Below, piece after piece: positions 1,018 through 17,010 of a stretch of DNA of 17,010 nt. The notes beneath the pieces are model-generated. The model had not been told where the DNA came from. It did not search any database and was given only the letters and a program-made list of their open reading frames with translations. This DNA comes from an uncultured bacterium (GTDB lineage Bacteria > Acidobacteriota > Thermoanaerobaculia > Multivoradales > JAHEKO01), in NCBI GenBank assembly GCA_938016625.1, contig CALILB010000379.1, positions 1-17,010 on the forward strand, read 5' to 3'. Positions within the stretch are counted from its first letter, which is position 1. Each line of letters starts with the position of its first letter. The translations under genes were made by a program, and so were the position numbers.

Positions 1018-1035
1018 CCGGGGAGCGAATAAGCC

Positions 1036-1368
1036 ATGAAGCAAGTCGTTGTCTATCTTCGTCCCGAGCAGTTGCCGGCGGTCAAACAGGCGCTCTACGA
1101 GGCCGAGATCCGTCACCTGACGGCAATCTCGGTCCTCGGCACGGCGCCGAAAACGGAGCAGCAGATGTACAGAGGTGTCGAACGCGAGGTGGAGCTATTC
1201 CGCCGGATGCGGGTCGAAGTCAACGTCCAAGACGCCATGCTGGAGACCACCATCGACGCCATCAGCCGGGGTGCGATGGAGAGCGGTGGCTTTGGCAAGA
1301 TCTTCATCACCGAGCTCCACGACGTCGTCAAGATCTGGACGGGTGAGCGCGGAACCCGGGCGCTCTAG
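1036..1368 (+). CDS. P-II family nitrogen regulatory protein (GlnB/GlnK-like), atypical: the residue aligned with uridylylation site Tyr51 is Arg.
   Basis: The 110-aa protein aligns by eye to E. coli GlnB along its length: MKxxxxxxKPxxL..VKxAL start, T-loop MYRGVERE, B-loop GGFGKIFIT, and C-terminal VKIWTGERG matching IRIRTGE. It sits between amt and glnA, 18 bp after the amt stop. Confidence 0.85.
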   Translation: MKQVVVYLRPEQLPAVKQALYEAEIRHLTAISVLGTAPKTEQQMYRGVEREVELFRRMRVEVNVQDAMLETTIDAISRGAMESGGFGKIFITELHDVVKIWTGERGTRAL

Positions 1369-1380
1369 CGGGGCATATCG

Positions 1381-2817
1381 ATGGCTCGGAAATACCAGGT
1401 CACCGCTCTGGACGTGCTCAAGCAGATCAAAGAGCACGACATCAAGTTTCTAGACCTCAAGTTCGTCGATCTGTTCGGCACCCTCCAGCACCTGACGGTG
1501 CCCACCGAGGTCGTCGACGAGGATACCTTCCGGCACGGCGTCGGTTTCGACGGCTCTTCGGTCCGCGGCTTCCAAAAGATCAACGAGAGCGACATGCTGC
1601 TGATGCCGGATCCGAACTCGATGTTTCGCGATCCCTTTTTCGACGACCCGGCGCTCTCGGTCTTCTGCGACGTCATCGATCCCGACGGCTACAAACCCTA
1701 CTCGCGAGACCCGCGTGGTGTCGCGCGCCGCGCCGAAAAGCTCATCCGCTCGCTCGGGATCGCCGATACGGCCTACTTTGGTCCGGAGCTCGAGTTTTTT
1801 GTCTTCGATGACGTCAGCTTCGACCAGGCTACCCAGCACGGCTACTACTTCTTGAACAGCAAGGCCGCGTTCTGGAGCACCGGTGGCAAGGAAGGGCCGA
1901 GCCTGGGTCACCAGGCGGCGCGCAAGGAGGCCTACTTTGCCGCTCCGCCCGTGGATCAGTACAACAACCTGCGCTCGAAGATCTCGGACGTACTGACGCT
2001 GGCGGGCATTGAGCCCGAGCTCCACCACCACGAGGTCGGCGCCGCGGGGCAGTGTGAGATCGGCTTCCGCTTTGGCCCGCTGCTGCTGCAGGCCGACAGC
2101 GCCATCAAGTACAAGTACGTGGTCAAGAACGTCGTCGACCGCTACGGCAAGACGGTCACCTTTATGCCCAAGCCGCTGCTGCAGGAGAACGGCTCGGGGA
2201 TGCACGTCAATGTGAGCCTGTCGAAGGGCGACACGAACCTCTTCTATCGCTCCGGCGGTTACGCGGATCTGAGCGAGACGGCGATTCATTTCATCGGTGG
2301 TCTGCTCCACCATGCGCCGGCGCTGTGTGCCTTTTGCGCGCCGACCACCAACTCTTATCGACGGCTGGTGCCCGGTTACGAGGCGCCGATGAATCTCGTC
2401 TACTCACAACGAAACCGCAGTGCCTGTATCCGGGTACCGATGATGGCCAGCTCGCCAAAGGCCAAGCGCATCGAGTTCCGCACCCCCGACCCTTCGGCAA
2501 ACCCCTACCTGGCTTTTGCCTCGATTCTGCTGGCCGGTCTCGACGGAATCCGCAACGAGATCCAGCCACCGGATCCGATCGACGAGGACATCTACGAGCT
2601 GGCCGAGACCGAAAGAGGGGCGGCCATCGCGCGGACGCCGGGCTCGTTGGAGGAGTCCATTGACGCCCTGGAGAGAGATCACGAGTTTCTCGTCCGGGAC
2701 GATGTTTTTACCTCCGACGTGATCGAGAACTACATCGACTTCAAACGGGAGCACGAGATCGAGTTCGTGCAACTGAGGCCCCATCCGGGCGAGTTCACCC
2801 TCTATTTCAATGTCTAG
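1381..2817 (+). CDS. glnA: Glutamine synthetase type I (GSI). A Tyr in a DIYEL motif aligns with the E. coli adenylylation loop NLYDLP.
   Basis: Full 478-aa GS sequence. The N-terminal beta-grasp region is MARKYQVTALDVLKQIKEHDIKFLDLKFVDLFG. The catalytic region contains GSGMHVN and NPYLAFA, and the C-terminal ...HPGEFTLYFNV closely matches E. coli ...HPVEFELYYSV. It starts 12 bp after the P-II stop. Confidence 0.95.
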   Translation: MARKYQVTALDVLKQIKEHDIKFLDLKFVDLFGTLQHLTVPTEVVDEDTFRHGVGFDGSSVRGFQKINESDMLLMPDPNSMFRDPFFDDPALSVFCDVIDPDGYKPYSRDPRGVARRAEKLIRSLGIADTAYFGPELEFFVFDDVSFDQATQHGYYFLNSKAAFWSTGGKEGPSLGHQAARKEAYFAAPPVDQYNNLRSKISDVLTLAGIEPELHHHEVGAAGQCEIGFRFGPLLLQADSAIKYKYVVKNVVDRYGKTVTFMPKPLLQENGSGMHVNVSLSKGDTNLFYRSGGYADLSETAIHFIGGLLHHAPALCAFCAPTTNSYRRLVPGYEAPMNLVYSQRNRSACIRVPMMASSPKAKRIEFRTPDPSANPYLAFASILLAGLDGIRNEIQPPDPIDEDIYELAETERGAAIARTPGSLEESIDALERDHEFLVRDDVFTSDVIENYIDFKREHEIEFVQLRPHPGEFTLYFNV

Positions 2818-2851
2818 GTGAAACGATTCGAGGCCAAAAAGGACGGTAGTC

Positions 2852-4144
2852 ATGGATCAAGCGCAGATGATAGGAATAGCACTCGGACTGGGAGGCGCAG
2901 CCCTGTTGCTCCTGCTGGCCTTCATCAAGACCCACATCGTCATCAGCCAGCCAAACGAGGTGGTCATTCTCTCGGGCCGCCAGCGCCGCCTACCGGACGG
3001 CCGCAAGGTCGGCTACAGAATCATCCGCGGTGGCCGCGGTTTCCGCTGGCCGTTCTTGGAGTCGGTCACACGCCTGCCGGTCACCACTCGGGCGATCGAT
3101 GTTCATCTATCGAAGGCCCTCAGCGCCGGCATGATCCCAATCACCGTCGAGGGGCGAGCCAACGTCAAGCTCGCCGGTAGCGAGGAGGAGGGGTTGGAGA
3201 GCGCTGTGGAGCGATTCCTGGGCAAGGGCGACGATGCCGTGGACAGAACCGCCCAGCAGGTCCTGGAGGGTGCGTTGCGCGGTGTCGTGGCGACGGTGAG
3301 TCCCGAAGAGGCCAATGCCCAGCGGCTCCAGCTCGCCCAGCAGGCCGCCGATCACGCTCGCGAGGATCTCAGCCGGCTCGGTATCGTGCTCGATTTCTTT
3401 CAGATCCAGAGCATCTCGGATGACCAGGGTTATCTCGAGTCCATCGGCCGCAAACGGAACGCGCAAGTCCAGCGAGACGCCAAAATCGCCGAGGCCAGGG
3501 CGGACGCCGAATCGCGCCAGGTGTCGGCGGAGCAGAAACTCGTCGGCCGCGAGGCCGAGATCGAGGCTGAAAAGGTCATCGTCAAACACGAGAACGAGCT
3601 CGCCGTGGAGAAGGCGGATCTCCAGGCCGAGACGAATCGCTCCCAGCAGAGAGCCGAGGTGGCGGGCAAGGTCGCACGTGTCGAGGAGGAGATCGACCTC
3701 GAGACCAAACGAGTCGAGCTGAGCACCAAACGCCACGAGGCCGACACCGTGATACCCGCGCGTGCCCACCGGGAAGCGCAAGAGCTCGAAGCGCAGGGCA
3801 AAGCGGCCAGAATCCTTGAAGACGGCAAGGCCACCGCCCAGGCCGTGGAGCTGATGCGCGAGCAATGGCAGGATGGCGACACCCATGACCTCTTTCTGAT
3901 CCAGATGCTGCCCGAGTTGCTCGACAAGGTCACCCGGGTGGTGGCCGACAACTTGCGGGTCGAAAAGCTCACCATCCTCGACGGAGGCAACGGCGAGGGC
4001 CTTCCCACTTATGTCAAGAACATCGCCAACAGCGCCGTGGTCATGCTCGAGCAGGTGAAAAACGCCACCGGTATCGATATGGAGAAACTGGCGAAGGGCG
4101 GGAGCCAGGAAAAGGACGCAAAGATCCCTAAGGACCTCGGTTGA
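2852..4144 (+). CDS. Flotillin-like SPFH/Band-7 membrane scaffold protein, with an N-terminal TM/hairpin and a long E/A/K/Q-rich coiled coil.
   Basis: N-terminal hydrophobic segment IGIALGLGGAALLLLLAFI. The SPFH core is VVILSGRQRR...IIRGGRGFRWPFLESV...IDVHLSKALSAGMIPITVEGRANVKL. An extended charged heptad-like region follows (AEARADAESRQVSAEQKLVGREAEIEAEKVIVKHENELAVEKADLQAE...), typical of FloT/YqiK-type flotillins. Confidence 0.85.
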   Translation: MDQAQMIGIALGLGGAALLLLLAFIKTHIVISQPNEVVILSGRQRRLPDGRKVGYRIIRGGRGFRWPFLESVTRLPVTTRAIDVHLSKALSAGMIPITVEGRANVKLAGSEEEGLESAVERFLGKGDDAVDRTAQQVLEGALRGVVATVSPEEANAQRLQLAQQAADHAREDLSRLGIVLDFFQIQSISDDQGYLESIGRKRNAQVQRDAKIAEARADAESRQVSAEQKLVGREAEIEAEKVIVKHENELAVEKADLQAETNRSQQRAEVAGKVARVEEEIDLETKRVELSTKRHEADTVIPARAHREAQELEAQGKAARILEDGKATAQAVELMREQWQDGDTHDLFLIQMLPELLDKVTRVVADNLRVEKLTILDGGNGEGLPTYVKNIANSAVVMLEQVKNATGIDMEKLAKGGSQEKDAKIPKDLG

Positions 4145-4261
4145 GGCGCGAGCCCGAGCCACCTTCTGGCCTTCTCATCGGCCGCGAGGCGAGAACCCCA
4201 CTCGATTCCGCAGGCGGGATAAGATTCGAGTCTCTCGGGCGTGAGGAGGGCCTTGTCGAGC

Positions 4262-4281
4262 CGAGGCTTTTATATGCCTCG
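4262..4281 (+). promoter_or_regulatory. Small hairpin (6-bp stem CGAGGC/GCCTCG, 8-nt loop TTTTATAT). It sits in the 166-bp intergenic region upstream of the stressosome-module operon. The AT-rich loop is the only TATA-like element in this GC-rich gap, so it is a candidate -10 or operator element.
   Basis: The inverted repeat is read directly at 4262-4267 and 4276-4281. The only substantial non-coding gap on the plus strand in this window is 4145-4310, between the flotillin stop and the 4311 ATG. Confidence 0.3.
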
Positions 4282-4310
4282 CCGGCAGGATTAGTCCGAG
4301 GTGATCTCAG

Positions 4311-6206
4311 ATGACGATACGAGCAAAGATCCTGATCATCCTCTCCACGGTAGCCATCGTGTCGGCGGGAATAAGCTCGCTTCTCGGCTACCGAACCGCC
4401 CGCAAGGCTCTGGAGAGACAGTCCTTCGACAAGCTCACCGCGGTGCGGGAGATGAAGGCCAGCCAGGTGGAGGACTACTTCCAGCAGATCGTCGACCAGA
4501 TCGTGACCTTCTCCAGAGATCGGATGACAGTAGACGCCATGAGGGCGTTCAGTGCAGAGTTCTCGAACCTCGAGAGCCAGGTGGGATGGGACGAGCAGGC
4601 AACCGAAGAGGCAGAGCTCGAGCTTCGCTTGTACTACCAAGAGGAGTTCTTGCCTCGACTCGAGCAGAACCTCGAAAGTCCAGCCACCCTTTCCAGCTTT
4701 TGGCCGAATGACCGCGAGAGCCGGATACTCCAATATCAGTTCATCGCCGCCAATCCGTTCGACACCGGCTCTAAATCCAGTCTCGAGGAGCCCGCGGAAA
4801 AGAGCGCCTACAGTCGCGCTCATAAGCTGTATCATCCGATCTTTCGGGACTACCTCGAGAGATTCGGCTTCTACGACATCTTTCTGGTCGACCTAGAAAC
4901 CGGGCACATCGTCTACTCGGTATTCAAGGAGGTGGACTTCGGGACATCGTTGTTAAGCGGTCCTTACCGGGAGACGAATCTTGCTCGGGCGTTTCAGGCT
5001 GCCCGCCAGGCCGCCGCGCAGGATTTTGTGCTGTTGGTCGACTTCGAGCCCTATCACCCCTCCTACGGCGGTCAGGCTTCGTTCATTGCCTCGCCGATCT
5101 ACGACGGCCCCGAGAAGGTCGGAGTCCTGGTCTTCCAGATGCCCGTCGATCGGATCAACGACATCATGACCAGCAAGCACGAGTGGTCACGGGTGGGTCT
5201 GGGCGAGAGCGGAGAGACCTATATTGTCGGCTCGGACTACAAGATCCGAAATCAGTCGCGCTTTCTGATCGAGGACAAGGAAAACTACCTAAAGTTGATC
5301 GCGAGCATCGGTACTCCGGACTCGATCATAAAGGCCATCGCCAACCTCGATAGCTCCATCGGTCTTCAGGAGGTGCAGACCGAAGGCACTCGGGCTGCAC
5401 TAGGTGGGGAAACCGGTACGAAGATCTTTCCCGATTATCGTGGTGTCCCCGTACTCTCATCGTTCATGCCGCTCGACATTAGGGATGTCGATTGGGTGAT
5501 CATGAGCGAGATCGACGAGGCCGAAGCGTTCGAGCCTGCCAGGACACTGAGGAACCGGGTTTTGATCTGGCTGGCGGTTCTGATCGGCGCGAGTGTCGTC
5601 GCTGCCATGGTCTTCTCCAAGGGTCTGACCCGGCGACTCGAGGCGCTTTCTGAGACAGCAGCCCAACTTGCCGACGGCTTCCTCTATGTGGAGGTCGACA
5701 CCAGCGGCCGAGACGAGATAGCCGATCTCTCCAAGAGCTTCGAGACCATGCGGCAGTCTCTTGTCGAGCTGGTGGAGAAGCAGGAGGCCGAGATCGACGC
5801 TCTGTCGACACCGCTGATCCCGCTACTGGACGACGTCGTGGCCATGCCTCTCGTCGGCGAGCTCGATTCCAAGCGGATCGAGAAGGCCAGGCAGACTCTC
5901 GTCGAAGGTCTGCATGCCAGGGGGGCGAAGGCGGCGCTTCTCGATTTGACCGGTGTTCCTAGCCTCGACACCGGGAGCGCCGAAGCGCTTCTGGGAGCTG
6001 CCAAGGCGGCCCAGCTCTTGGGAGCGAAGGTCGTCATCACCGGTATGCGATCGGAGGTCGCTGCCAGCGTTGCAGATCTCGGCCTCCACCTCGACGGAGT
6101 CGCCACCGAGCGCTCGCTACAGAGCGGTATCTCTTTCATTATGAACGAGATAGGCGCTGCCAAGATGAAAAACCACTTGCAAGCTGGTGAGGAGGAAGAC
6201 GAATGA
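4311..6206 (+). CDS. Membrane-anchored RsbR-type stressosome protein. Domain order: TM1, periplasmic double-Cache (dCache_1-like) sensor, TM2, HAMP, coiled coil, C-terminal RsbR-type STAS domain.
   Basis: TM1 is ILIILSTVAIVSAGISSLLGY. The ~370-aa extracytoplasmic region ends in the Cache hallmark DYRGVPVLSSFMPLDIRDVDWVIMSEIDEAEAF. TM2 is VLIWLAVLIGASVVAAMVFS. The HAMP-like segment is KGLTRRLEALSETAAQLADG...DEIADLSKSFETMRQSL. The C-terminus aligns with B. subtilis RsbR STAS: LSTPLIPLLDDVVAMPLVGELDSKR...ALLDLTGVPSLDTGSAEALL...GAKVVITGMRSEVAASVADLG. The RBS GAGGTGA lies 6 nt before the ATG. Confidence 0.85.
   Translation: MTIRAKILIILSTVAIVSAGISSLLGYRTARKALERQSFDKLTAVREMKASQVEDYFQQIVDQIVTFSRDRMTVDAMRAFSAEFSNLESQVGWDEQATEEAELELRLYYQEEFLPRLEQNLESPATLSSFWPNDRESRILQYQFIAANPFDTGSKSSLEEPAEKSAYSRAHKLYHPIFRDYLERFGFYDIFLVDLETGHIVYSVFKEVDFGTSLLSGPYRETNLARAFQAARQAAAQDFVLLVDFEPYHPSYGGQASFIASPIYDGPEKVGVLVFQMPVDRINDIMTSKHEWSRVGLGESGETYIVGSDYKIRNQSRFLIEDKENYLKLIASIGTPDSIIKAIANLDSSIGLQEVQTEGTRAALGGETGTKIFPDYRGVPVLSSFMPLDIRDVDWVIMSEIDEAEAFEPARTLRNRVLIWLAVLIGASVVAAMVFSKGLTRRLEALSETAAQLADGFLYVEVDTSGRDEIADLSKSFETMRQSLVELVEKQEAEIDALSTPLIPLLDDVVAMPLVGELDSKRIEKARQTLVEGLHARGAKAALLDLTGVPSLDTGSAEALLGAAKAAQLLGAKVVITGMRSEVAASVADLGLHLDGVATERSLQSGISFIMNEIGAAKMKNHLQAGEEEDE
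6189..6198 (+). promoter_or_regulatory. Shine-Dalgarno GAGGAGGAAG, 7 nt upstream of the 6203 ATG. It lies inside the 3' end of the upstream gene, so the two genes are translationally coupled through an ATGA stop/start overlap.
   Basis: Read directly: tGAGGAGGAAGacgaATGA. Confidence 0.6.
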
Positions 6207-7111
6207 ACAGAACCTCAGGATCGGCCGGGGAGGGCGGAAACATGGCTGCTCTCCTCGAGCTCTACCGAATCTCCGAGGACGATCTGGACCGCGTAAGGGA
6301 ATTCGCCAAGATGGCCGGATCGGGATTGGAGGGTTTGATTGGCCAATGGTACGAGTGGCTCCAGAACTTGCCGGAGTACGACCACTTCTTTTCCGAGCCC
6401 GAGACTCTGGAACGCGTCAAACGTCTTCAGCAGGACTACTGGGCAACGTTTCTAGCGGCGCAAATGGACGATTCCTACCTCGAGACTCGGAGGCAGGTGG
6501 GGGAGACACACGCTCGGATCGGACTTTCGCTGAACACTTACTTTGCCGGGATGGACATGATGCTCGAGCTCTTCACTAGAGCCGTTCACAAGGCTGATTT
6601 GAAGGACGGGGCAAAGTTGAACATGCAGGAGTCGGTTACCAAGATGCTCCATCTCGACACCTCCATCGTTGTCGATACCTACAACCACATGGTCGAGGAG
6701 ACGCTGACGGCCCAGGCAAAGTCGCTGATGGAGATGTCCACTCCGGTGACCCAGATCTGGAGCGGGATTCTCTTGCTGCCGATCGTTGGGATCATCGACT
6801 CGAAGCGCGCCCGCGACATCATGAATGCCACGCTGGCCAAGATCGGAGAGACCCAGGCACGGATATTCATTCTGGACATCAGTGGCGTGGGAGTGGTGGA
6901 TACGGCGGTGGCCAATCACCTGATCAAGATCACTCGGGCTACCCGATTGATGGGTTGTGACTGCACTATCTCCGGGGTGTCACCATCGATTGCGCAGACC
7001 ATTGTCGATCTCGGTATAGACGTTGGCAGGATCAAGACCACATCGACGATGAAAGACGCTCTGGCCGACGCCTTCCAACGTGTCGGTATGGAGATCACCC
7101 AGGCGAGCTGA
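6203..7111 (+). CDS. rsbR: RsbR-type stressosome protein with an N-terminal globin-coupled-sensor-like domain (candidate heme-binding proximal His103 in VGETHARIGL) and a C-terminal STAS domain.
   Basis: The C-terminal half is a near-canonical RsbR STAS: MSTPVTQIWSGILLLPIVGIIDSKRARDIM...IFILDISGVGVVDTAVANHLIKITRATRLMGCDCTISGVSPSIAQTIVDLGIDVG. The N-terminal ~140 aa is a helical globin-like domain with an H-x-R-I-G-L...Y pattern reminiscent of globin-coupled sensors. The ATG overlaps the upstream stop (ATGA). An alternative start is ATG 6242. Confidence 0.85.
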   Translation: MNRTSGSAGEGGNMAALLELYRISEDDLDRVREFAKMAGSGLEGLIGQWYEWLQNLPEYDHFFSEPETLERVKRLQQDYWATFLAAQMDDSYLETRRQVGETHARIGLSLNTYFAGMDMMLELFTRAVHKADLKDGAKLNMQESVTKMLHLDTSIVVDTYNHMVEETLTAQAKSLMEMSTPVTQIWSGILLLPIVGIIDSKRARDIMNATLAKIGETQARIFILDISGVGVVDTAVANHLIKITRATRLMGCDCTISGVSPSIAQTIVDLGIDVGRIKTTSTMKDALADAFQRVGMEITQAS

Positions 7112-7115
7112 GAAG

Positions 7116-7556
7116 ATGGCCGGCGGCAGTGGCTCGAGGATCCCCCTTCAGGTGTCGCGGCAGTGCGTCGTGGCCTCGATCCAGCTCGATCTGACCGCGG
7201 AGGTACTCCGACAGTTCCGCGCCGACCTGCTCGGGCTGCTGCACGACTCCGGATGCAGCGGCGTCATACTCGACGTCTCGGGTGTCCAGATCATGGATTT
7301 TGAAGACTTCGAGGCGTTGCGACGGACCATGGCCATGGCGGCCCTCATGGGGGCCCAGACGATCGTCTCCGGTCTCAGGGCGGGTGTCGTCTCGTCGTTG
7401 GTCGAGCTGGGTGCCGACACCGAGGATATTGTCGCCACGCTCGATCTGGACGATGCCTTTCGCGTCATGGATGAGCTGCGCTCGGCGGCTCGCGATGAGC
7501 TCGAGGAGGAGGACAACCGTGAGCAGTCGGTCGGTCCGCTTGCAGATCCGGTCTGA
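7116..7556 (+). CDS. rsbS: RsbS-type single-domain STAS protein (stressosome core). The residue aligned to the phosphorylatable Ser59 appears to be Phe in an acidic DFEDFE context.
   Basis: The 146-aa protein aligns with B. subtilis RsbS: RIPLQVSRQCVVASIQLDLTAEVLRQFRADLL...GVILDVSGVQIMDFEDFEAL...MGAQTIVSGLRAGVVSSLVELG. The six-frame ORF begins at 7080 but overlaps the upstream gene, so ATG 7116 (MAGGSG...) is preferred. Confidence 0.8.
   Translation: MAGGSGSRIPLQVSRQCVVASIQLDLTAEVLRQFRADLLGLLHDSGCSGVILDVSGVQIMDFEDFEALRRTMAMAALMGAQTIVSGLRAGVVSSLVELGADTEDIVATLDLDDAFRVMDELRSAARDELEEEDNREQSVGPLADPV
7503..7513 (+). promoter_or_regulatory. Shine-Dalgarno GAGGAGGAGGA, 5 nt upstream of the GTG 7519 start of the RsbT-RsbX fusion gene. 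It is embedded in the 3' end of rsbS.
   Basis: Read directly: tcGAGGAGGAGGAcaaccGTGagc. The GTG is in frame with the RsbT-like sequence. Confidence 0.5.
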
Positions 7557-8619
7557 GCCGGACGCGATGCGGCCGGTGATGGAGGCCACTCGCAGAGCCC
7601 GCCAGATAGGCTTTGGACCTCAGGAGGCCCAGGCGATCTCCACAGCGGTGTCAGAGCTCGCGAGGAACATCTTGAAGTATGCGAGTACTGGAGAGGTGAT
7701 CATCGAGGAGACGCAAAGCGGGCGGCGTAAGGGCCTTCAAATCACTGCGCGCGACCGCGGTCCGGGCATCGCCGATGTCGAGTCCGCCATGCGGGATCAT
7801 TTCAGCTCGGGGGGAACCCTCGGTCTGGGTCTGCCGGGTGTCAAGCGGATGATGGATGAGTTCGAGATCGATTCCGCACCCGGCCGCGGCACCCGAGTCG
7901 TGATTCGCAAGTGGCTAGGGCCCCACGGTGATCTTGGAAGGTCCCGTCTCCGCGAGGCCTTGAAGAGATCGGGGGAGGGGCGGACCGGCGGCCAGATCAG
8001 CAGTGGCGCACTCACAAGCGGCGAGACCAAGGCTGCGGCCGGAGTCGACTGCGCGTTTTTCATTCGCCCCTGCCGAGGAGAGCGCGTCAGCGGTGACGCA
8101 GCCGTCATCGAGCAGCGCGAAGGCTTTATCTTCGCTGCCCTCATCGATGCCTTGGGTCATGGGCCTTCCGCCCACCGGATCGCCGTGCAGGGAGCGGCTT
8201 ACCTGAAAGAGTCGTGGACTTCAGATGTCCTTGCCACCCTCCATGGGCTCCACGATGCACTTCGCGGCACCGAGGGGGCCGCTGCAGGGCTCTGTGTGCT
8301 GGAGGTCGCTACGAGCACGGTGCGTTATGCGGGCGTCGGAAACACGGTTATCCGCAGCTTCGGCTCGCGAGAGGAGCGTCTCTACTCAGCGGCCGGCACC
8401 CTGGGCCATCAGATGCGCACCCCCAAGGAGCAACGTCTGGTGGTCACTCCCGGCGATGTCCTCATGCTCTACTCTGACGGCATCAAGGAACGGTTCGAGC
8501 TGGACGATTATCCACAGCTCAGGTATCAGAAATCACGCACCATCGCGAAGACCGTAGTGGAGCGATTCGGCAAGGACCACGACGACGCCGGCTGCGTGGT
8601 ATTGAGAATCGAATCATGA
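7519..8619 (+). CDS. Fusion protein. N-terminal RsbT-type GHKL serine kinase (stressosome switch kinase). A ~40-aa G/S-rich linker follows. C-terminal RsbX-like PP2C feedback phosphatase. The start could instead be ATG 7567.
   Basis: The N-domain is VRLQIRSEPDAMRPVMEATRRARQIGFGPQEAQAISTAVSELARNILKYAS...ITARDRGPGIADVESAMRDHFSSGGTLGLGLPGVKRMMDEF, matching B. subtilis RsbT including the G1/G2 ATP-lid boxes. The C-domain is CRGERVSGDAAVIEQREGFIFAALIDALGHGPSA...YAGVGNTVIRSF...VLMLYSDGI, matching B. subtilis RsbX motifs (CGDSFF..ELICAVADGLGSGSLA, YCSVGNVRFIL, IIHTDGL). The single uninterrupted frame 7282..8619 is in the six-frame track. Its 3' end overlaps the next ATG (ATGA). Confidence 0.8.
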   Translation: MSSRSVRLQIRSEPDAMRPVMEATRRARQIGFGPQEAQAISTAVSELARNILKYASTGEVIIEETQSGRRKGLQITARDRGPGIADVESAMRDHFSSGGTLGLGLPGVKRMMDEFEIDSAPGRGTRVVIRKWLGPHGDLGRSRLREALKRSGEGRTGGQISSGALTSGETKAAAGVDCAFFIRPCRGERVSGDAAVIEQREGFIFAALIDALGHGPSAHRIAVQGAAYLKESWTSDVLATLHGLHDALRGTEGAAAGLCVLEVATSTVRYAGVGNTVIRSFGSREERLYSAAGTLGHQMRTPKEQRLVVTPGDVLMLYSDGIKERFELDDYPQLRYQKSRTIAKTVVERFGKDHDDAGCVVLRIES

Positions 8620-10283
8620 TTCCCCTCGGAAGCATTGCTATCAGACAATCGGCGTCGATTCTCGAAGCCCGAAACAAGATCCGGACAGTGGCCGAGACGG
8701 TTCTGCATGATGCTGTGGGCGCCACTCGCGTAGCCACGGCGACTTCGGAGATAGCCCGGCTCCTGCTGCGCGAAGGAAACGATTCCCGCATTGATGTGGG
8801 CCTCGACATCCAAGCTCGAGCCCGTTGGCTGGTGATCGATTTCATCGGCCATCAATCGCTGTCCGGGGTGAACGAACTGGCGGGATTATTCGACGAGGTC
8901 GACGGACCCTATGATGTCAGCGGCGAGAACCTCGTCCGGGGCCTGGTGTCGCTTCCAGGTAGCGGCTTGCCCGACGAGGGATCGATCGCCACACTCCGGT
9001 CGGTGGTGGAAAAGAAGGGCCGGGACGAGCTGATCGCCGAAATCCAGATCAAGAACGTCGAGCTGCAGGATTCACTGGACAACTTGAGACGGGAGCGGTC
9101 GGCCAAGGAGCGGATGGAGAGCGAGCTCAACATCGGCCGCGAGATCCAGATGAGCATGCTGCCGCTCTCCTTCCCCGCCTTCCCAGACCGTACCGACTTC
9201 GACGTCCATGCTTCTCTCTATCCCGCGCGTGAGGTCGGCGGTGACTTCTACGATCTGTTTCTGATCGACAACCAGCATTTCTGCTTCTGTGTCGGCGACG
9301 TGTCGGGGAAGGGAGTGCCGGCGGCGCTCTTCATGGCGGTGACCAAGACCCTGATCAAGTCGCGAGCCGCGAACGACCTCTCGCCGGCGAGCATCTTGAG
9401 CCACGTCAACACTGAGTTGAGTCATCGCAACGAATCCTGCATGTTCGTGACCATATTCCTGGCCATCCTCGATCTCGAGATCGGTGAAATGGTCTACACC
9501 AATGCCGGACATAATCCACCTTACGTCAAGCGTGCCGATGGCAGTCTCCTGCGCCTCGATAGCCGGCATGGTCCGATCGTCGGTGCCGCAGAGGGTCTGG
9601 CCTATCGAGAGGACAGGGAAGGCCTCAGTCCCGGAGACCTCGTTTTTCTTTACACGGATGGGGTTACGGAGGCCATGAACGAGGAAAGTCAGCTCTATAC
9701 CGAAGACAGACTCAAAGGGCTTCTCTCGAATCACCCTTGCAGCTCGGTCGAGGAATCGGTCCGGGTCAGCGTGGATGACGTGTGGGATTTTCAGGGCGAG
9801 GCCGAACAGGCCGATGATATTACGGTAATGACCGTGTCCTACTCCGGGCCGAGTGAAGATGTGGAGTCGAACCGACTCGAGCTGAGAGCTGTTAATCGAC
9901 TCGAAGAGATCGCTCGTGTCAATGAGAGCTTCAACCAGTTCGCCCGGGAGCATGGGATACCGGATGCGATCAGACGGAAGATCAATCTCGTCTTCGATGA
10001 GCTGCTCAACAACATCATCTCCTACGCCTACGGGGACGATGACGAGCATCTCATGGAGATCGTCATCTCATTGGTGAACGGTCGCCTCGTCACCACGATT
10101 AGCGACGATGGTCGGGCTTTCAATCCCTTCGAAAGCGAAGCTCCGGATACCGGACTCTCGGTCGATGAACGTCCCATCGGAGGTCTGGGTGTACACCTCG
10201 TGCGAAGTGTGATGGACACGGTGAAATACGAGCGGCACGGCAGGAGAAACGTCGTGACCCTGGAAAAGATCGTCGAGCAGTAA
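8616..10283 (+). CDS. Fusion protein. An N-terminal ~150-aa domain of uncertain identity (possibly a degenerate RsbT-like domain lacking ATP-lid motifs). Then an RsbU-type PP2C (SpoIIE-family) phosphatase. Then a C-terminal RsbW/SpoIIAB-type GHKL anti-sigma-factor kinase.
   Basis: The PP2C core is MESELNIGREIQMSMLP...GGDFYDLF...FCFCVGDVSGKGVPAALFMAVTK...SCMFVTIFLAILD...YTNAGHNPP...LVFLYTDGVTEA...ADDITVMTVSY, matching B. subtilis RsbU motif by motif. The C-terminal 140 aa is LELRAVNRLEEIARVNESFNQFAREHGIP...INLVFDELLNNIISYAY...LVTTISDDGRAFNPFE...IGGLGVHLVRSVMDTVKYERHGRRNVVTLEK, matching RsbW. The ATG overlaps the upstream stop. Confidence 0.85.
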   Translation: MIPLGSIAIRQSASILEARNKIRTVAETVLHDAVGATRVATATSEIARLLLREGNDSRIDVGLDIQARARWLVIDFIGHQSLSGVNELAGLFDEVDGPYDVSGENLVRGLVSLPGSGLPDEGSIATLRSVVEKKGRDELIAEIQIKNVELQDSLDNLRRERSAKERMESELNIGREIQMSMLPLSFPAFPDRTDFDVHASLYPAREVGGDFYDLFLIDNQHFCFCVGDVSGKGVPAALFMAVTKTLIKSRAANDLSPASILSHVNTELSHRNESCMFVTIFLAILDLEIGEMVYTNAGHNPPYVKRADGSLLRLDSRHGPIVGAAEGLAYREDREGLSPGDLVFLYTDGVTEAMNEESQLYTEDRLKGLLSNHPCSSVEESVRVSVDDVWDFQGEAEQADDITVMTVSYSGPSEDVESNRLELRAVNRLEEIARVNESFNQFAREHGIPDAIRRKINLVFDELLNNIISYAYGDDDEHLMEIVISLVNGRLVTTISDDGRAFNPFESEAPDTGLSVDERPIGGLGVHLVRSVMDTVKYERHGRRNVVTLEKIVEQ

Positions 10284-10323
10284 AGCAAGAGGGATCAAAC
10301 ATGTATTCAAAAGAGGTGTGGCT

Positions 10324-10656
10324 ATGAAAATGGAAACCACTGCGGTGGACTCGGTTACGGTTGTACGCTGCGAGGGCAATCTCGACACCAACACCTCGGT
10401 CGAGGCCCAGGACACCTTGAACCAGCTCATGGATGATGGGGCCGCCAAGATATTGATCGATTTCGAAAAGGTCGATTTCGTCAGCAGTGCCGGACTCCGG
10501 ATACTGCTCGCTAGTGCAAAGCGCCTGAGCTCATCCGGAGGTGGTCTACGCATCACCGGCCTCAACGACGTCGTCAACGAGGTCTTCGAGATTTCGGGCT
10601 TCAGCACGATCCTCGACGTTTTCGCCTCGGAGGAAGAGGCGCTCCAGGGCTTCTGA
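10324..10656 (+). CDS. rsbV: RsbV/SpoIIAA-type anti-sigma-factor antagonist: a single STAS domain with a conserved phosphorylatable Ser in the DFVSSAGLRIL motif.
   Basis: The 110-aa protein MKMETTAVDSVTVVRCEGNLDTNTSVEAQDTLNQLMDDGAAKILIDFEKVDFVSSAGLRILLASAKRL...LRITGLNDVVNEVFEISGFSTILDVFASEEEA is the classic SpoIIAA fold signature. The RBS AAGAGG lies 7 nt upstream of ATG 10324. The six-frame track begins at in-frame GTG 10318. Confidence 0.85.
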   Translation: MKMETTAVDSVTVVRCEGNLDTNTSVEAQDTLNQLMDDGAAKILIDFEKVDFVSSAGLRILLASAKRLSSSGGGLRITGLNDVVNEVFEISGFSTILDVFASEEEALQGF

Positions 10657-10746
10657 GGGGTACCTGCCTCCTCGAAGACTCTCGACGACGCATCCAGTGT
10701 TCAGAAAGCTCTCCAGGTGCCGGTGTCCTGAGAAAGCACCACCACG

Positions 10747-12123
10747 ATGACGATCAGTGAGAGCTCGCGGCTCCGGACCGGATGGGATCTGCTGATCCTG
10801 GTGCTGGTTCTTCTAAGCTGTCTGCTGGTTCCTTTTCAGATCGCTTTCCGGCATCAGGTGAACCTCGCAGGGTCGGTTCTTCTCTATTTGATCGACCTCT
10901 TCTTTCTGCTGGACATCTTTCTCAACTTCCACACCACCTTCCGGCGCCAGGGTGCCGAGGTCACCGATCCCGGTGAGATAGCCCGGCACTACCTCGGAAC
11001 CCTCTTTCTCGTCGATCTGCTGGCGGCGTTACCGTTCGATGCCCTCCTGCTCCCGTGGAGAGGCGTCGAGATCGGCGGAGTCTCGGTCGTCCTGCTGGCG
11101 AGGCTGCTGCGCCTGCTCCGCGTCGTCCGCCTGTTTGCCATCCTCAGACGGTGGCAGCGACAGAATTGGACCAACGCAGGTTTCTTGCGCATCGCCAAGC
11201 TAGCGGCAGTCATTCTCCTCCTGACCCACTGGATCGCCTGTGCCTGGTTTCTGATTCCTTACATGGAAGGTTTTCCCGAGGACTCGTGGGTCGTGACCGA
11301 GGGAATCGATGAGGCGGAACCGGTGTCGCAGTATGTCCGCTCTCTCTACTGGGCCATCGTCACCATGACGAGTGTGGGTTACGGGGACATCACACCGGTC
11401 CGCAATACCGAGTATCTCTTCACCATGCTGGCCATCGCGGTGGGCGCCTCGATCTACGCCTTTGTCATCGGCAACATCGCATCGCTGCTCAGCAATCTCG
11501 ATCGCGCCAAAGCGAGCTTCTGGAACCGGGCGGAGACGGCCAATCAGTACCTCCGCAGCCGGCGCGCCCCGTCCAGACTGAGCGAGCACATTCGGGACTA
11601 CTACGAGTACGTGTGGGAGAGGTACCGGGGGATGAGCGAGCAGGAGCTCTTTGGCGATCTTCCGGGTCCGGTGAGGCTCGAGATTCTCCTCCACCTGACT
11701 CGAGATCTGCTGGAGCAGGTGCCACTGTTCCGCCACTGCACCCCGGCACTCCGCAACGCGTTGCTCATGGCGTTGAGGCCACAGGTCTTCGGACCGGACG
11801 GATACATAGTCAGGGAGGGGGAGGTCGGGAACGAGATCGTCTTCATCAGCCGGGGTACGGTGGAGATCCTTACTGAAGAAAGAAAGAAGTCCCACGGCAA
11901 CCTGGGCAGTGGCGAGTACTTCGGCGATCTGTCGATGCTGCTGGGGGAGCGGCGAACGGCGTCGGTGCGGGCAGTGACATACTGTGACGTGTTCGTTCTG
12001 GCGCGAGAGGACTTCGACAGGATCAAGAGCGAGTACGAGGAGTTCAAGGAGATTCTGAAGACCATCTCCTCGGAAAAGTCGGAGCGCCTGTCTGCGCTTG
12101 TTCTGGACGGCGTGGTCCTCTAG
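10747..12123 (+). CDS. Cyclic-nucleotide-binding-domain-containing voltage-sensor K+ channel (6TM; S4 with regularly spaced Arg; TSVGYGD selectivity filter; C-terminal CNBD with intact phosphate-binding cassette).
   Basis: S1-S3 are hydrophobic segments. S4 is VVLLARLLRLLRVVRLFAILRR. The pore helix plus filter is YWAIVTMTSVGYGDITPV (nt 11368-11388 encode TSVGYGD). The CNBD is VPLFRHC..LRNALLMALRPQVFGPDGYIVREGEVGNEIVFISRGTVEI...GSGEYFGDLSMLLGERRTASVRAVT, with Glu and Arg-Thr of the phosphate-binding cassette present. Confidence 0.9.
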   Translation: MTISESSRLRTGWDLLILVLVLLSCLLVPFQIAFRHQVNLAGSVLLYLIDLFFLLDIFLNFHTTFRRQGAEVTDPGEIARHYLGTLFLVDLLAALPFDALLLPWRGVEIGGVSVVLLARLLRLLRVVRLFAILRRWQRQNWTNAGFLRIAKLAAVILLLTHWIACAWFLIPYMEGFPEDSWVVTEGIDEAEPVSQYVRSLYWAIVTMTSVGYGDITPVRNTEYLFTMLAIAVGASIYAFVIGNIASLLSNLDRAKASFWNRAETANQYLRSRRAPSRLSEHIRDYYEYVWERYRGMSEQELFGDLPGPVRLEILLHLTRDLLEQVPLFRHCTPALRNALLMALRPQVFGPDGYIVREGEVGNEIVFISRGTVEILTEERKKSHGNLGSGEYFGDLSMLLGERRTASVRAVTYCDVFVLAREDFDRIKSEYEEFKEILKTISSEKSERLSALVLDGVVL

Positions 12124-12137
12124 ACGATCGAGAATCG

Positions 12138-14738
12138 ATGAGCACGATCATCATCGGCGACGGTCTGACCCGCGAGGTTCTGAGCCCCGAGCTTCCCTAC
12201 CGGGAATCGAGGCAAAACATCGGACAGGCGGAAGTCACGCGGCTGCTGGGCAGAGGCAGGAGCTTCGGCGAGGGTCCGCTGCCTCTATTCCTGCGGCGGG
12301 CGGTAGAGGACGGAGATGATGGTGGAGGTGGGGGAGTCATCTTCTTGGCCACCCTCCCCGACTCCGAAGTCGACGGAAAACCTTCCGGGGAGTCACCCGG
12401 CCCCGAGGTTTTCGTCGATCCGCTACAGGATCTGGCTAGGCAGGTGAGAGTTGTTTCCACCTCGACGGATTCCCTTCCCTGGCAGGAGCTCATGACCACG
12501 ATCGAGGCGCTTGGTGGCTCCGAGGAGGCTCGCCTGAGCTCGGAACAGGGTGAGCTCCGATTCCTGGTGGTCGGTTGTCACACCGAGCAACGAATCATGG
12601 CGATTGCTTCATTTCTCAAGAATGTCCTCGGGTACGAGCGCGTCGGTGTGGCTTCTCATCTAGTGGGTAGCGCCACACCAGCCGGTCATTTCGCGGCGCT
12701 GAGGCATAATCTGCCCGGCGCCGGCGTCGAAGTCATCCTCGACCTGGAAGAGGCCGCAACTTTCGCAGGGCTCGACCCTGCGCCGTTCGGACCCCTCGGC
12801 TACCGCCCCTGTGCTCTGGAGCTGCCCGACGAAGAGACATCGCTCGCCGCGGAACAGAGGCGCATCGTCGAGCTTCTCTGTCTGCACTGGACGAGGGCCC
12901 GCCTGCGACCGCTGGCCGGGGGCTTCAGCGGCAGCCTGCTGCTGTTGGCGGATGGATGGAAAGGCGAGGCCCGGACCGAGCCCCTGGTCCTCAAGATCGA
13001 TGCCTTCTCGCAGATGCGGCGTGAGTTGGATGGGTACCACCTGGTCAAGGACTTCTTTGGCAAGCATGTGCCCACTTTCTCCTATCCAGTGGCGGATGGC
13101 GACCTCATCGGCGTCGGGATGGAGCTGGCGGCCATGGAGGGGCGGCCGCGGACACTCCAGGATGCTTTCGAGGAGGCCGAGGACGAGGAGAGCCTGGGTC
13201 GTTTTATGCGCCAGCTGGACAAATCCCTGGTTCTCCTTTCCGAGAAGCTCTATAGCAACACCCGGGAGGAATCCGGGGTCGTGCCTTACCGTGTGTTCGG
13301 TCTCCATGCCAAAAAGCAACAGAAATGGCTGCGGCAGAACGGCGAGCTGACCCTCTCCTACCTCGAGACCGAGCTGCAAAACGAAGCGAAGCCCAACCCT
13401 CAGCAACTGGCAAAACTTCTCGGGGTAGTCGCCTCGAACGAGGACAGCGTCGACAGCGAAGTCTGCCTCAGCCATGGCGACCTGAACTTTGCCAACGTCA
13501 TCTGCGACCAGGCCGACAACATCTGGTTTATCGATTGGACACACAGCGGCTACGCCCCGGTCGAGCTCGATTTCGCCAAGCTGGAGTCGGATGCCAAGTT
13601 CGTGATGAGCAAGGAATTCGAACCCGAGGACCTACAACGGCTCAAGAAGCTTGAGGAGTATCTAGCCTCACACCGTCTACCCGCCGACGCCAATTCGCTC
13701 CCTGAAAGCCTGAAGTTCGCCAAGTGGGACCTGCGATTTCGCAAGATTCTCGGGGCCGTCAGACGAATCCGCGAGACCTGCTTTTCCCTCAAGGAGACCG
13801 ACGACTGGCTGGTCTACCGGATCGCCCTCTTGCGCTACGCCCTGCACACGCTCAGCTTCGACAAACGCCGAGACCGAGGCGAGTGCGAGCCAACACAGCT
13901 CATGCAGGCTCTCTATTCGGTGGAATGCCTGATCTTCGATCTCGTGGCCGACGACTTTCATCTGAAGACCCGGGGAGAGCGGCCACCCGTCTATCCGCCT
14001 CGGCTCAGAGTTTCCATCGACGAGGCGCCGTGGATGTTGGACAGCCCCGGCTACGATCCTCCCTTCTACGTCGATCCCTCGGTCACCCAGAACGAGCGGG
14101 ACGGCGGCGCGGGCGGCTGGGCCGATCCGGGGGACTTCGAGCAGGTCAAGGAAGAGCCGAGGATCCAGGCGGCCAAGTTCAAAGACGACAGCGGCAAACC
14201 GCTCAACCCCCGGGGCCGAACCGGAATCGCGGGTCGTGGACTGCTCGGGCTGTGGGGCCCCAACCTTTCGGTGGCCGTCAACCTGGTGCGCACCAACGAG
14301 GCGACCGGGGAGTTGGAGATTCTCCTGGGGAACAAGGAGGGGGGGCAGGATCTGGAGCTTCCCAAGGGGTTTGTCCTGCCGGGCGAGGAGCCCGACGAGG
14401 CGGTGGCTCGGGTGCTCGAGAGCGAGACCGGGTGGCGACCCTCGGGCCTCGATTCGGAAGTGGTTTTCGAGGGCTACACCTACGATCCCCGGGAGACCGA
14501 CAATGCCTGGGTCGAGAGCCGGGTATCCTTGATCGTGGCCGGCAGTGACCTGCGGCGCAGCACCTTTCGACCGGGTGGCGAGTTCGACGAGGTCAAGTGG
14601 TGGCCGCTCGAGGCCGAGACCATTAACCGGGTCCCCTCCGGCCAGGCCCGCTTCGTCAGAGAGTCTCTCACCCGGCTGATGGAGGCGGGCCACCTGGACA
14701 AAGCCACGGCCGAGAATCTGCTGACCGCTACAGGGTGA
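12138..14738 (+). CDS. Large multidomain protein. The ~210-aa N-terminal domain is of uncertain fold (weak resemblance to the isochorismatase / cysteine-hydrolase Rossmann core, but with Arg where the catalytic Cys would be). The central domain is an APH / choline-kinase-fold small-molecule phosphotransferase. The C-terminal domain is a NUDT9-like Nudix hydrolase (ADP-ribose pyrophosphatase-like).
   Basis: The kinase has a G-rich loop RPLAGGFSGSLLLL and a VLKI beta3 Lys, then the catalytic loop CLSHGDLNFANVICD and the IDWTHSG metal-binding motif (nt ~13474-13520). The Nudix domain reads GRTGIAGRGLLGLWGPNLSVAVNLVR and has the Nudix box GFVLPGEEPDEAVARVLESETGW (nt ~14367-14435). The N-domain has FLVVGCHTEQRIMAIASFLKNVLGYERVGVASHLVGS. 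The start is 14 bp after the channel stop, with no terminator evident. Confidence 0.8.
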   Translation: MSTIIIGDGLTREVLSPELPYRESRQNIGQAEVTRLLGRGRSFGEGPLPLFLRRAVEDGDDGGGGGVIFLATLPDSEVDGKPSGESPGPEVFVDPLQDLARQVRVVSTSTDSLPWQELMTTIEALGGSEEARLSSEQGELRFLVVGCHTEQRIMAIASFLKNVLGYERVGVASHLVGSATPAGHFAALRHNLPGAGVEVILDLEEAATFAGLDPAPFGPLGYRPCALELPDEETSLAAEQRRIVELLCLHWTRARLRPLAGGFSGSLLLLADGWKGEARTEPLVLKIDAFSQMRRELDGYHLVKDFFGKHVPTFSYPVADGDLIGVGMELAAMEGRPRTLQDAFEEAEDEESLGRFMRQLDKSLVLLSEKLYSNTREESGVVPYRVFGLHAKKQQKWLRQNGELTLSYLETELQNEAKPNPQQLAKLLGVVASNEDSVDSEVCLSHGDLNFANVICDQADNIWFIDWTHSGYAPVELDFAKLESDAKFVMSKEFEPEDLQRLKKLEEYLASHRLPADANSLPESLKFAKWDLRFRKILGAVRRIRETCFSLKETDDWLVYRIALLRYALHTLSFDKRRDRGECEPTQLMQALYSVECLIFDLVADDFHLKTRGERPPVYPPRLRVSIDEAPWMLDSPGYDPPFYVDPSVTQNERDGGAGGWADPGDFEQVKEEPRIQAAKFKDDSGKPLNPRGRTGIAGRGLLGLWGPNLSVAVNLVRTNEATGELEILLGNKEGGQDLELPKGFVLPGEEPDEAVARVLESETGWRPSGLDSEVVFEGYTYDPRETDNAWVESRVSLIVAGSDLRRSTFRPGGEFDEVKWWPLEAETINRVPSGQARFVRESLTRLMEAGHLDKATAENLLTATG

Positions 14739-14744
14739 TTGTCG

Positions 14745-15665
14745 ATGTCGCTGACCCCCACCGAGAGAGCATGTCTCGAAGCCTTTCGACAAGGTGCCGA
14801 TCCGGTGCGGACTAGGGATCCGGGCAGGATGGAAGAGTGGCTCGGATTCGGTCTCCGTCTGCTGCTGGAGGCGGGCGCGAAGATCCGAGAGGGTCGCGCC
14901 AAGATCGACGAGGGCGAGGTCGAGCTCAAGAGTGATGGGTCCCCCGTCACTAGTATCGAGGAGGAGATCGAGCGGCTATTGGTAGAACGCCTCACGGTCT
15001 TTACCGAGAACATTGCGATGGTGGGTGAGGAGACCGGTGGAGCTCTGCCGGAGTCGGGATTTGCGGTGGCGATCGATCCGATCGACGGCACCTGGGCCTT
15101 TGTCAACGGCACCGAGACCTACACCACCACCCTCGCCTTCTTCCATGACCGTGAGCCCTTTCTGGGCATGGTCTCCAACCCCGCTACAGGCGAGATCGGG
15201 TATGCCCTCAACGAGGAGGCCTCGCGCCTTCTTCAGCTCTCCCTCTATGGCGAAGCAGATGCCGCCTGTTCTTTGCCACGGGCGGGAGCGGAGGCCGCGC
15301 CACCCTGCCTACTTGTCAATGTCCATCCGAGCAGCCAAGGTGGAGCCCTGGCCGCGGCACTCCACGAGGCATGGTCGCGGGGTGAGGTCGACATGGTGCG
15401 CTCACCCGGCGGCTCGCCGGCCTGGGCGCTGCTCGAAGCCGCCAAGGGCGACTTCGTCTATGTCAATCAGTGGACGAAGAGGCCGGCGGACGTCTACGAC
15501 CTGGCTGCCGGTGTCCTGCTCGTGCGGCGGGCCGGCGGTGAGGTCACGGATCTGGAAGGGCAGCCGATCGACATGCTTCGCCACCAGGGTCCCTTTGTCG
15601 CCTCGATCGACCAGCCTTCCAGAAAAAAGGTAATCGAGCTGGTCGGCCGGGTGGTGAGCAGCTAG
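14745..15665 (+). CDS. Inositol monophosphatase / CysQ (3'(2'),5'-bisphosphate nucleotidase) family phosphatase.
   Basis: Family motifs are present: MVGEETGG (metal-binding E-E), AIDPIDGTWAFVNGT (the DPIDGT signature) and, later, WAL..LEAAKGDFVYV (WD-x-x-AG-like). ATG 14745 is preferred because an RBS-like GGGTGA lies 6 nt upstream, inside the stop of the previous gene. The six-frame track starts at TTG 14739. Confidence 0.8.
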   Translation: MSLTPTERACLEAFRQGADPVRTRDPGRMEEWLGFGLRLLLEAGAKIREGRAKIDEGEVELKSDGSPVTSIEEEIERLLVERLTVFTENIAMVGEETGGALPESGFAVAIDPIDGTWAFVNGTETYTTTLAFFHDREPFLGMVSNPATGEIGYALNEEASRLLQLSLYGEADAACSLPRAGAEAAPPCLLVNVHPSSQGGALAAALHEAWSRGEVDMVRSPGGSPAWALLEAAKGDFVYVNQWTKRPADVYDLAAGVLLVRRAGGEVTDLEGQPIDMLRHQGPFVASIDQPSRKKVIELVGRVVSS

Positions 15666-16985: not shown

Positions 16986-17010
16986 TGCCCGCCCTCCAAT
17001 CTAGGTGCCG

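Follow-up and report, generated by a model that had tools for sequence, protein, structure and literature searches.

A Probable Natural Fusion of RsbT-Type Kinase and RsbX-Type Phosphatase in a Predicted Stressosome Operon of an Uncultured Acidobacteriota Bacterium

1. The rsbT-rsbX Gene and Its Product

In the stressosome model, RsbT is a kinase that diffuses, and RsbX, the phosphatase that resets the system, is supplied separately; the ratio between them is believed to govern how sensitive the response is and how long recovery takes. In a contig from an uncultured bacterium (Acidobacteriota; Thermoanaerobaculia; Multivoradales; JAHEKO01; assembly GCA_938016625.1, contig CALILB010000379.1), a single gene, here termed rsbT-rsbX, appears to encode both. 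The stretch analysed comprises positions 1 to 17,010 of the forward strand (hereafter, the window). An earlier inspection of the letters and open reading frames of the window (hereafter, the sequence-only reading) had proposed that an RsbT switch kinase is joined there, in frame, to an RsbX-like feedback phosphatase.

The reading frame containing the gene is free of stops from 7282 up to the TGA at 8617–8619 on the + strand. The biologically sensible choice of start is the GTG at 7519, because a GGAGGA Shine–Dalgarno sequence lies about 7 nucleotides (nt) upstream and because the N-terminus of the product then aligns with residue 1 of RsbT-like proteins. The product, which independent gene callers also predict on other contigs, has 366 amino acids (aa) rather than the 367 first proposed, a figure in which the stop codon had been counted. 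The 5′ end of the gene shares 38 nt with the 3′ end of rsbS, and its stop codon overlaps, as ATGA, with the ATG that begins the following gene.

The N-terminal domain (hereafter, the T domain) matches two Pfam families above the gathering threshold, HATPase_c_2 at aa 11–131 (E 5.7e-15) and HATPase_c at aa 38–130 (E 9.4e-12), and Foldseek pairs it with SpoIIAB at a template modelling (TM) score of 0.75–0.77. In the AlphaFold2 (AF2) model, the predicted local distance difference test (pLDDT) score of this domain is around 90, apart from the ATP lid at aa 94–102. BLASTP comparisons with Bacillus subtilis proteins, the sequences of which were entered by hand, gave 115 bits and 45% identity over 133 aa for RsbT, 45 bits for SpoIIAB, and 29 bits for RsbW; judged by these scores, the T domain is much closer to RsbT than to either of the others. 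It departs from the free-standing form of RsbT, which has some 130–140 aa, in being the N-terminal 133 aa of a 366-aa protein.

The C-terminal domain (hereafter, the X domain) matches the Pfam family SpoIIE at aa 204–357 (E 6.4e-10, again above the gathering threshold). A single-sequence search of the PDB with the C-terminal half returned 3zt9 at 1.3e-16, and a profile search ranked 3zt9 (1e-28) and 3w40 (1.7e-16) before Rv1364c (5.5e-10), with SpoIIE also behind 3w40. Foldseek likewise placed 3zt9 (TM 0.88) and 3w40 (TM 0.84) first. One publication (PMC4524716) describes 3ZT9 as MtX, the Moorella homologue of RsbX, and 3W40 as B. subtilis RsbX; it also gives a GN at motif 5 as the signature of the RsbX-type group II PP2C phosphatases, and this signature is present here as G274-N275. 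By both sequence and model, the nearest solved relatives of the C-terminal half are the RsbX-family proteins MtX and RsbX, and not RsbU, SpoIIE, or RssB.

The sequence-only reading had held that the catalytic motifs of both halves are intact, while allowing that the X domain might turn out to lack the PP2C metal-binding residues once properly aligned. In an alignment of 104 homologues spanning 45–100% identity, the N, G1, and G2 boxes of the kinase are invariant, as are G192-D193, D210-x-x-GHG, G274-N275, D320-G321, and D355 of the phosphatase; the motifs thus stand, and the doubt over the metal-binding positions D193, D210, D320, and D355 is removed. The neighbouring D356 is invariant in an alignment of 33 sequences, and its conservation in the larger alignment is 90% or more. 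On the evidence of these residues, both halves look catalytically competent, and by every testable criterion except the free-standing form they are members of the RsbT and RsbX families.

Between the two domains lies a linker for which the sequence quoted earlier, PHGDLGRSRLREALKRSGEGRTGGQISSGALTSGETKAAAG, matches aa 135–175 exactly (G9 R5 S5 A5 L4 T3). The AF2 model of the full protein has a mean pLDDT of 85.5 and consists of two confident domains (above 90 across most of the PP2C domain), with low values only at the ATP lid (94–102) and in the linker region (136–170), where pLDDT falls below 50 at aa 136–157 and 168–170 and is around 50–65 in between. The profile searches and model together thus gave what had been expected of the product: an RsbT-like and an RsbX-like domain separated by a disordered linker. 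Among 226 fused proteins, the linker ranges from 4 to 60 aa (median 35) and its sequence is variable, with R, A, P, S, and G abundant. Since both length and sequence vary among the fused homologues, the linker is a spacer or flexible tether rather than a conserved element. An internal start that would give a separate RsbX was considered and rejected: the sole start-like codon in frame within the linker is a TTG (aa 148), with a GAGG only 2 nt upstream and no usable Shine–Dalgarno sequence.

2. Distribution of Fused and Split Forms

The sequence-only reading had called for an assembly frameshift to be excluded and for other such fusions to be sought in the databases. At least 24 contigs, drawn from separate samples, runs, and assemblies, encode the identical 366-aa protein with the same neighbours, and homologues with 81–93% identity share the fused architecture. 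Database searches gave 880 matches at E<1e-5 and 586 at E<1e-30 among representatives of 50%-identity clusters. Out of 265 homologues retrieved, 230 have T followed by X, 24 have X only, 3 have T only, and 6 have X ahead of a GHKL domain. When a single genome of each species was scanned, 80 loci were recovered. Many of them have T and X in one stop-free frame, and these include loci from closed chromosomes and from isolates in culture (Aeromonas salmonicida ATCC 33658, A. sobria, A. piscicola, Synechococcus CS-1328, and Vulcanococcus limneticus). A frameshift in the assembly is thereby excluded, and the single uninterrupted reading frame is found again in independent assemblies and in complete isolate genomes. 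The search for further fusions succeeded, the T-X gene standing next to rsbS in related loci; the rarity that had been implied did not survive it.

Among the isolates, A. salmonicida has its exact fusion sequence on 224 contigs, and the fusion is present in its complete genomes. In strain ATCC 33658 (locus L042, 3372–9863), the genes encode, in order, a PAS-PAS-STAS RsbR, an RsbS, a T-X protein of 354 aa, a hybrid histidine kinase with the layout HisKA-HATPase-REC-REC-Hpt, and a REC-HD response regulator. One A. salmonicida orthologue of the window protein is WP_219591668.1. The fusion protein of A. salmonicida appears in databases under the names "ATP-binding SpoIIE family protein phosphatase", "histidine kinase", and, in UniRef, "Serine/threonine-protein kinase RsbT". 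No description of an Aeromonas stressosome was found in the searchable literature. A. salmonicida is a fish pathogen and, with such an operon, would be a tractable model.

The fused form occurs in Gemmatimonadota, Halieaceae, Acidobacteriota, Myxococcales, Acidimicrobiia, Fimbriimonadia, Aeromonas, and picocyanobacteria. Separate T and X genes occur in the Coleofasciculaceae and Xenococcaceae among the cyanobacteria, in Ignavibacteria, in two Gemmatimonadota, in Iodobacter, in Desulfobacterales, and in others. In 74 loci in which both domains are complete, 41 are fused and 33 are split. Parsimony on a neighbour-joining tree of concatenated T and X sequences, which is rough and has no support values, requires at least five changes of state when the X-GHKL class is counted; for switches between fused and split forms, the tree implies a minimum of four or five.

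Several of the split loci have rsbT and rsbX in a common frame with one stop (TAG, TAA, or TGA) between them, and the ATG of rsbX follows 0–4 codons on (L024, L032, L033 at 5388–5396, L039, L049, and the Iodobacter-type loci L048, L051, L053, L055, and L057). Since the split genes share a frame with one stop between them, fusion and fission would be one mutation apart, and a single point mutation or readthrough of the stop codon would yield a fusion with a short linker. The 41-aa linker of the window has no counterpart in the split loci, where stop and start codons abut.

The six proteins in which X precedes a GHKL domain might be taken for permuted fusions in reverse order. This was rejected: one of them, P0238, directly follows a separate rsbT of 133 aa, and because of this gene it would be an rsbX with a further GHKL domain rather than a permutation. 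The members of this class have about 335 aa (P0238, P0241, P0253, P0254, P0255, and P0261), and one locus was recovered (L085, 185–1575).

3. The Operon and Its Neighbourhood

The fusion gene is the fourth of a six-gene operon on the + strand, in which stop and start codons overlap or abut (Table 1). A complete module is encoded together, comprising RsbR (sensor plus STAS), RsbS (STAS only), kinase, and phosphatase, and its gene content is that of a Vibrio-type rsbR-rsbS-rsbT-rsbX stressosome module. The T-X gene directly follows rsbR and rsbS, an order that holds wherever the related loci yielded the upstream flank, and it fills the slot that the separate rsbT and rsbX hold in sister operons; the proximity to rsbS that had been expected of such fusions is thus confirmed. 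A scan of 3900–11000 for promoters and terminators gave nothing above the shuffled expectation.

Table 1. Predicted features of the operon containing rsbT-rsbX, with positions in the window (residue numbers are those of the fusion protein).
Feature	Position	Strand	Remarks
rsbR paralogue	4311–6206	+	membrane dCache-HAMP-STAS
rsbR paralogue	6203–7111	+	protoglobin (haem sensor) + STAS
rsbS	7116–7556	+	146 aa, single STAS domain
rsbT-rsbX fusion gene	7519–8619	+	GTG start; 366 aa + TGA stop
RsbT-type GHKL Ser/Thr kinase domain	7519–7917	+	aa 1–133; Pfam, motifs, AF2, Foldseek
Kinase N box E46/N50	7654–7668	+	
Kinase G1 box D79-x-G81-x-G83	7753–7767	+	
Kinase G2 box G99-TLGLGL-x-G107	7813–7839	+	
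Interdomain linker	7921–8043	+	aa 135–175, 41 aa, G/S/A/R-rich, predicted disordered
RsbX-type PP2C phosphatase domain	8044–8616	+	aa 176–366; Pfam, PDB matches, Foldseek
Phosphatase GD (G192-D193)	8092–8097	+	
Phosphatase DALGHG (D210-x-x-G213-H214-G215)	8146–8163	+	
Phosphatase GN "motif 5" (G274-N275)	8338–8343	+	
Phosphatase DG (D320-G321, the "SDG")	8476–8481	+	
Phosphatase DD (D355, D356)	8581–8586	+	
Output protein	8616–10283	+	555 aa, U_N + PP2C + RsbW-like GHKL
RsbV-like anti-sigma-factor antagonist	10324–10656	+	110 aa, single STAS

The order [dCache-STAS][globin-STAS][RsbS][T-X][U_N-PP2C-GHKL][RsbV] is kept in Gemmatimonadota, Halieaceae, Acidobacteriota, Acidimicrobiia, and Fimbriimonadia; a Myxococcales metagenome-assembled genome, which is the nearest relative, shares the upstream half of the operon. 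The cyanobacteria, Ignavibacteria, and some Gemmatimonadota in which T and X are split have either the same operon or a shorter one in which the output is PP2C only. The fusion also accompanies varied sensors (globin, or PAS-PAS in Aeromonas) and varied outputs (PP2C+GHKL with STAS, or, in Aeromonas, the hybrid histidine kinase with an HD-domain response regulator).

The operon contains a second fused pair of antagonists (8616–10656), in which a PP2C and an RsbW-like GHKL kinase are on one protein and the gene for an RsbV-like STAS protein follows; no sigma-factor gene is adjacent to this pair. Upstream of the operon (7–4144) is a nitrogen-assimilation cluster with amtB (partial), glnB/P-II, and glnA, followed by a gene for an SPFH/Band-7 protein. 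Directly downstream are genes for a cyclic-nucleotide-gated K+ channel (Ion_trans + cNMP_binding, 10747–12123) and for an 866-aa protein with TCAD9 (ternary-complex-associated domain 9), an APH/choline-kinase-like fold, and NUDIX (12138–14738). A convergent gene on the − strand (15726–16985), about 5 kb from the operon, encodes a GAF + SpoIIE/PP2C protein of 419 aa, a phosphatase of the partner-switch type.

4. Phospho-Acceptor Sites

In the canonical system, to which the sequence-only reading had appealed, both RsbS and RsbR would be substrates of the pair. In the RsbS of the window, Phe62 (7299–7301) occupies the position of Ser59 in B. subtilis RsbS, the reference sequence again being entered by hand and the conserved "D-x" STAS motif aligning unambiguously. 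A Ser or Thr stands at this position in only 8 of 73 relatives (fused, 2 of 42; split, 6 of 31), and its loss shows no correlation with fusion, since it is missing in most relatives of either kind. The globin RsbR, by contrast, has a Ser at the equivalent of T171 of B. subtilis RsbRA ("GIIDSKR") and a Thr at the equivalent of T205 ("VVDTAV"). Among the relatives of the globin RsbR, to which these counts are confined because the STAS tail of the dCache RsbR aligns too noisily for scoring across the family (for it, direct reading was confined to the sequence of the window), all 53 have Ser at the first position and all 53 have Thr or Ser at the second. The equivalent sites in Vibrio vulnificus RsbR are Ser199 and Thr233, according to PMC9237108.

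Since the Ser59 position of RsbS lacks Ser or Thr while both RsbR sites are conserved, RsbR is most likely the sole substrate, and the kinase/phosphatase pair would cycle RsbR only. RsbS in this family of modules seems to be a non-phosphorylatable scaffold. Of the two substrates first proposed, RsbR is therefore retained as a prediction and RsbS most likely drops out.

5. The N-Terminal Domain of the Output Protein

The protein encoded directly downstream of the fusion consists of an N-terminal domain termed U_N (aa 1–112), a long helical linker (121–180), a PP2C domain (195–410), and an RsbW-like GHKL kinase domain (420–552). Comparison by hhalign of two independently built alignments indicates homology between U_N and the N-terminal half of the T domain (probability 88–90%, E ~2e-6, confined to ~60 columns); in control comparisons of U_N with the PP2C domain and with the GHKL domain at the C-terminus of the same protein, the probability was below 1%. 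In the AF2 model, the strands and helices of U_N follow the same order as those of the T domain, and there is no ATP lid, N-box Asn, or G1 box. On these grounds, U_N is a degenerate RsbT-like GHKL domain. It heads the gene directly downstream of X or T-X in 59 loci, whether this encodes PP2C+GHKL, PP2C alone, or a hybrid histidine kinase. U_N could be the receiver of stressosome output, a "missing link" to the output proteins, acting either as a partner of T or as a sequestered element.

6. Relation to Known Systems

The closest known systems are the rsbRSTX "minimal stressosomes" of Vibrio vulnificus and V. brasiliensis (PMC4976288, PMC9237108). The operon of the window resembles these in its globin-coupled RsbR with Ser and Thr phospho-sites, its small RsbS, the position of rsbX straight after rsbT, the absence of a sigB gene, and the variable outputs directly downstream. 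It differs in that RsbT and RsbX are separate in Vibrio, where Jia et al. 2016 (PMC4976288) and Heinz et al. 2022 (PMC9237108) describe RsbX as a "single domain PP2C". It also adds a second, membrane RsbR (dCache-HAMP-STAS), and its output is a partner-switch pair of PP2C+GHKL and STAS, whereas that of Vibrio is a two-component system.

The same two folds and catalytic motifs are found in RsbT and RsbX of B. subtilis (3W40) and in MtT and MtX of Moorella thermoacetica (3ZT9); in both organisms, T and X are separate genes. In B. subtilis, moreover, the sigB operon has rsbT at one end and rsbX at the other, with rsbX subject to feedback control by sigma-B; the Ser59 site of B. subtilis RsbS is missing in the window, and the downstream partner in the window has no RsbU_N four-helix domain. 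Another comparison is with Rv1364c of Mycobacterium tuberculosis and the mycobacterial "RsbUW" (PDB 3KE6). There, the phosphatase precedes the kinase, which is the opposite of the T-X order, and the target of the protein is an RsbV-type antagonist of the output branch, not the stressosome core; T-X belongs, by the similarities given above, to the RsbT and RsbX subfamilies.

The Prokaryotic Genome Annotation Pipeline (PGAP) of NCBI has a class, "ATP-binding SpoIIE family protein phosphatase" (HATPase_c_2 + SpoIIE), which already names the protein of the window and its homologues in RefSeq/GenBank, including those of Aeromonas salmonicida, Halieaceae, and Planctomycetota. However, this purely descriptive name also covers unrelated output proteins in which PP2C precedes GHKL, and it does not flag a stressosome RsbT-RsbX fusion. 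No description of such a fusion was found in the searchable full-text literature, which did not include subscription-only papers. The T-X fusion, present in hundreds of genomes, is widespread and generically annotated but apparently unstudied.

7. Interpretation

The explanation that we favour, and that is probably correct as regards both identity and mechanism, is that the neighbouring genes rsbT and rsbX became fused in nature and that the product performs the canonical two-protein cycle in a different package. The T domain would dock on the STAS core of RsbR and RsbS and phosphorylate RsbR at the Ser and Thr equivalent to T171 and T205 of B. subtilis RsbRA, and the X domain would take these phosphates off again; these steps are drawn from established stressosome biology (Heinz et al. 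2022 and the B. subtilis work cited there). Fusion would bring an obligatory 1:1 stoichiometry as well as the co-expression and co-localisation of writer and eraser. Where the phosphatase engages phospho-RsbR, the tethered kinase/switch domain would be nearby to rebind the cleared site, and recapture could speed up.

Close relatives that share the operon have now the fused and now the split form. The fusion is therefore most reasonably seen as a change of packaging, near-neutral or mildly advantageous, whose effects are quantitative at most, and not as a new mechanism. That the two forms repeatedly interconvert argues for near-equivalence rather than for a special device, and near-equivalent is what they look. 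The sequence-only reading had gone further in suggesting that a covalently coupled kinase and phosphatase could make the complex an "adaptation/reset device". This is a possibility that the present analysis neither supports nor refutes.

Several points weigh against a fusion that simply packages the canonical cycle. In the canonical model, RsbT must leave the stressosome and bind the RsbU_N domain, and a kinase dragging a phosphatase of 190 residues may behave unlike free RsbT; a Pfam search with aa 1–112 of the output protein (8616–8951) gave no match, RsbU_N included. The RsbS of the module has no canonical phospho-serine, and part of the textbook cycle therefore cannot apply. Cleavage within the linker after translation may occur. 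The kinase and phosphatase activities, their substrates, and the binding to a stressosome are all predictions from sequence, the B. subtilis references for RsbT, RsbW, SpoIIAB, and RsbS were entered by hand, and the count of fusions and fissions depends on the rough tree.

A rather unlikely alternative is that, in the large family of RSTX modules with U_N at the head of the output gene, T-X never travels as the messenger. It, or the separate T and X, would stay on the stressosome as a resident writer and eraser that sets the phosphorylation of RsbR, while the STAS core would capture and release U_N or U_N would pair with T as GHKL anti-sigma kinases do in their homodimers. The homology of U_N with T, their shared order of secondary structure, and the position of U_N at the head of the downstream gene whatever the type of output are all consistent with this. 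So are two findings of Heinz et al. 2022 (PMC9237108): for most of the output proteins encoded after RSTX modules no RsbU_N can be detected, and two-hybrid assays showed no interaction between V. vulnificus RsbT and the kinase encoded downstream. A non-travelling kinase, moreover, could be fused to its phosphatase at no cost. However, U_N is equally frequent where T and X are split, and because of this it is no specific explanation of the fusion; with the query used, no U_N was detectable in the fused loci of Aeromonas and the picocyanobacteria. The homology, furthermore, extends over only ~60 columns, the interactions of U_N are hypothetical, and the T domain is still 45% identical to a bona fide switch protein. 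If true, this alternative would link Gram-negative stressosomes to their outputs and would explain why kinase and phosphatase fuse freely.

It is very improbable that one half of the protein is a pseudo-enzyme serving in docking or regulation, with the kinase as an anchor for the phosphatase or a dead PP2C capping RsbT. Kang and colleagues (1998, as cited in PMC4976288) are said to have found that in B. subtilis RsbT the switch function acting on RsbU can be separated from the kinase activity, and this, together with an RsbS that has no phospho-acceptor, would suit such an idea. Against it, the ATP-binding and metal-binding residues are all invariant across the 104 homologues, and both phospho-acceptor positions of RsbR are kept in 53 of 53 relatives. 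Finally, the idea that the organism really has two genes, joined only by a frameshift from sequencing or assembly or by the loss of a stop codon in one contig, can be dismissed: close relatives do have two genes, some with only one in-frame stop between them, but the independent contigs with an identical product, the fused close homologues, the closed chromosomes, the hundreds of Aeromonas assemblies, and a linker without counterpart in the split loci all speak against it.

8. Significance

A fusion of rsbT and rsbX is mechanistically conservative and implies no new chemistry; on its own it overturns nothing, and its value is to confirm, in the Rosetta-stone manner, that T and X act together. 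To a model in which kinase and phosphatase are supplied separately, it adds a natural version locked at 1:1, and this version and the split sister operons make a ready comparison for the effects of stoichiometry and proximity on the activation and reset of the stressosome. Such a test of fused against split forms is feasible because the fusion occurs in the cultured and genetically tractable Aeromonas salmonicida.

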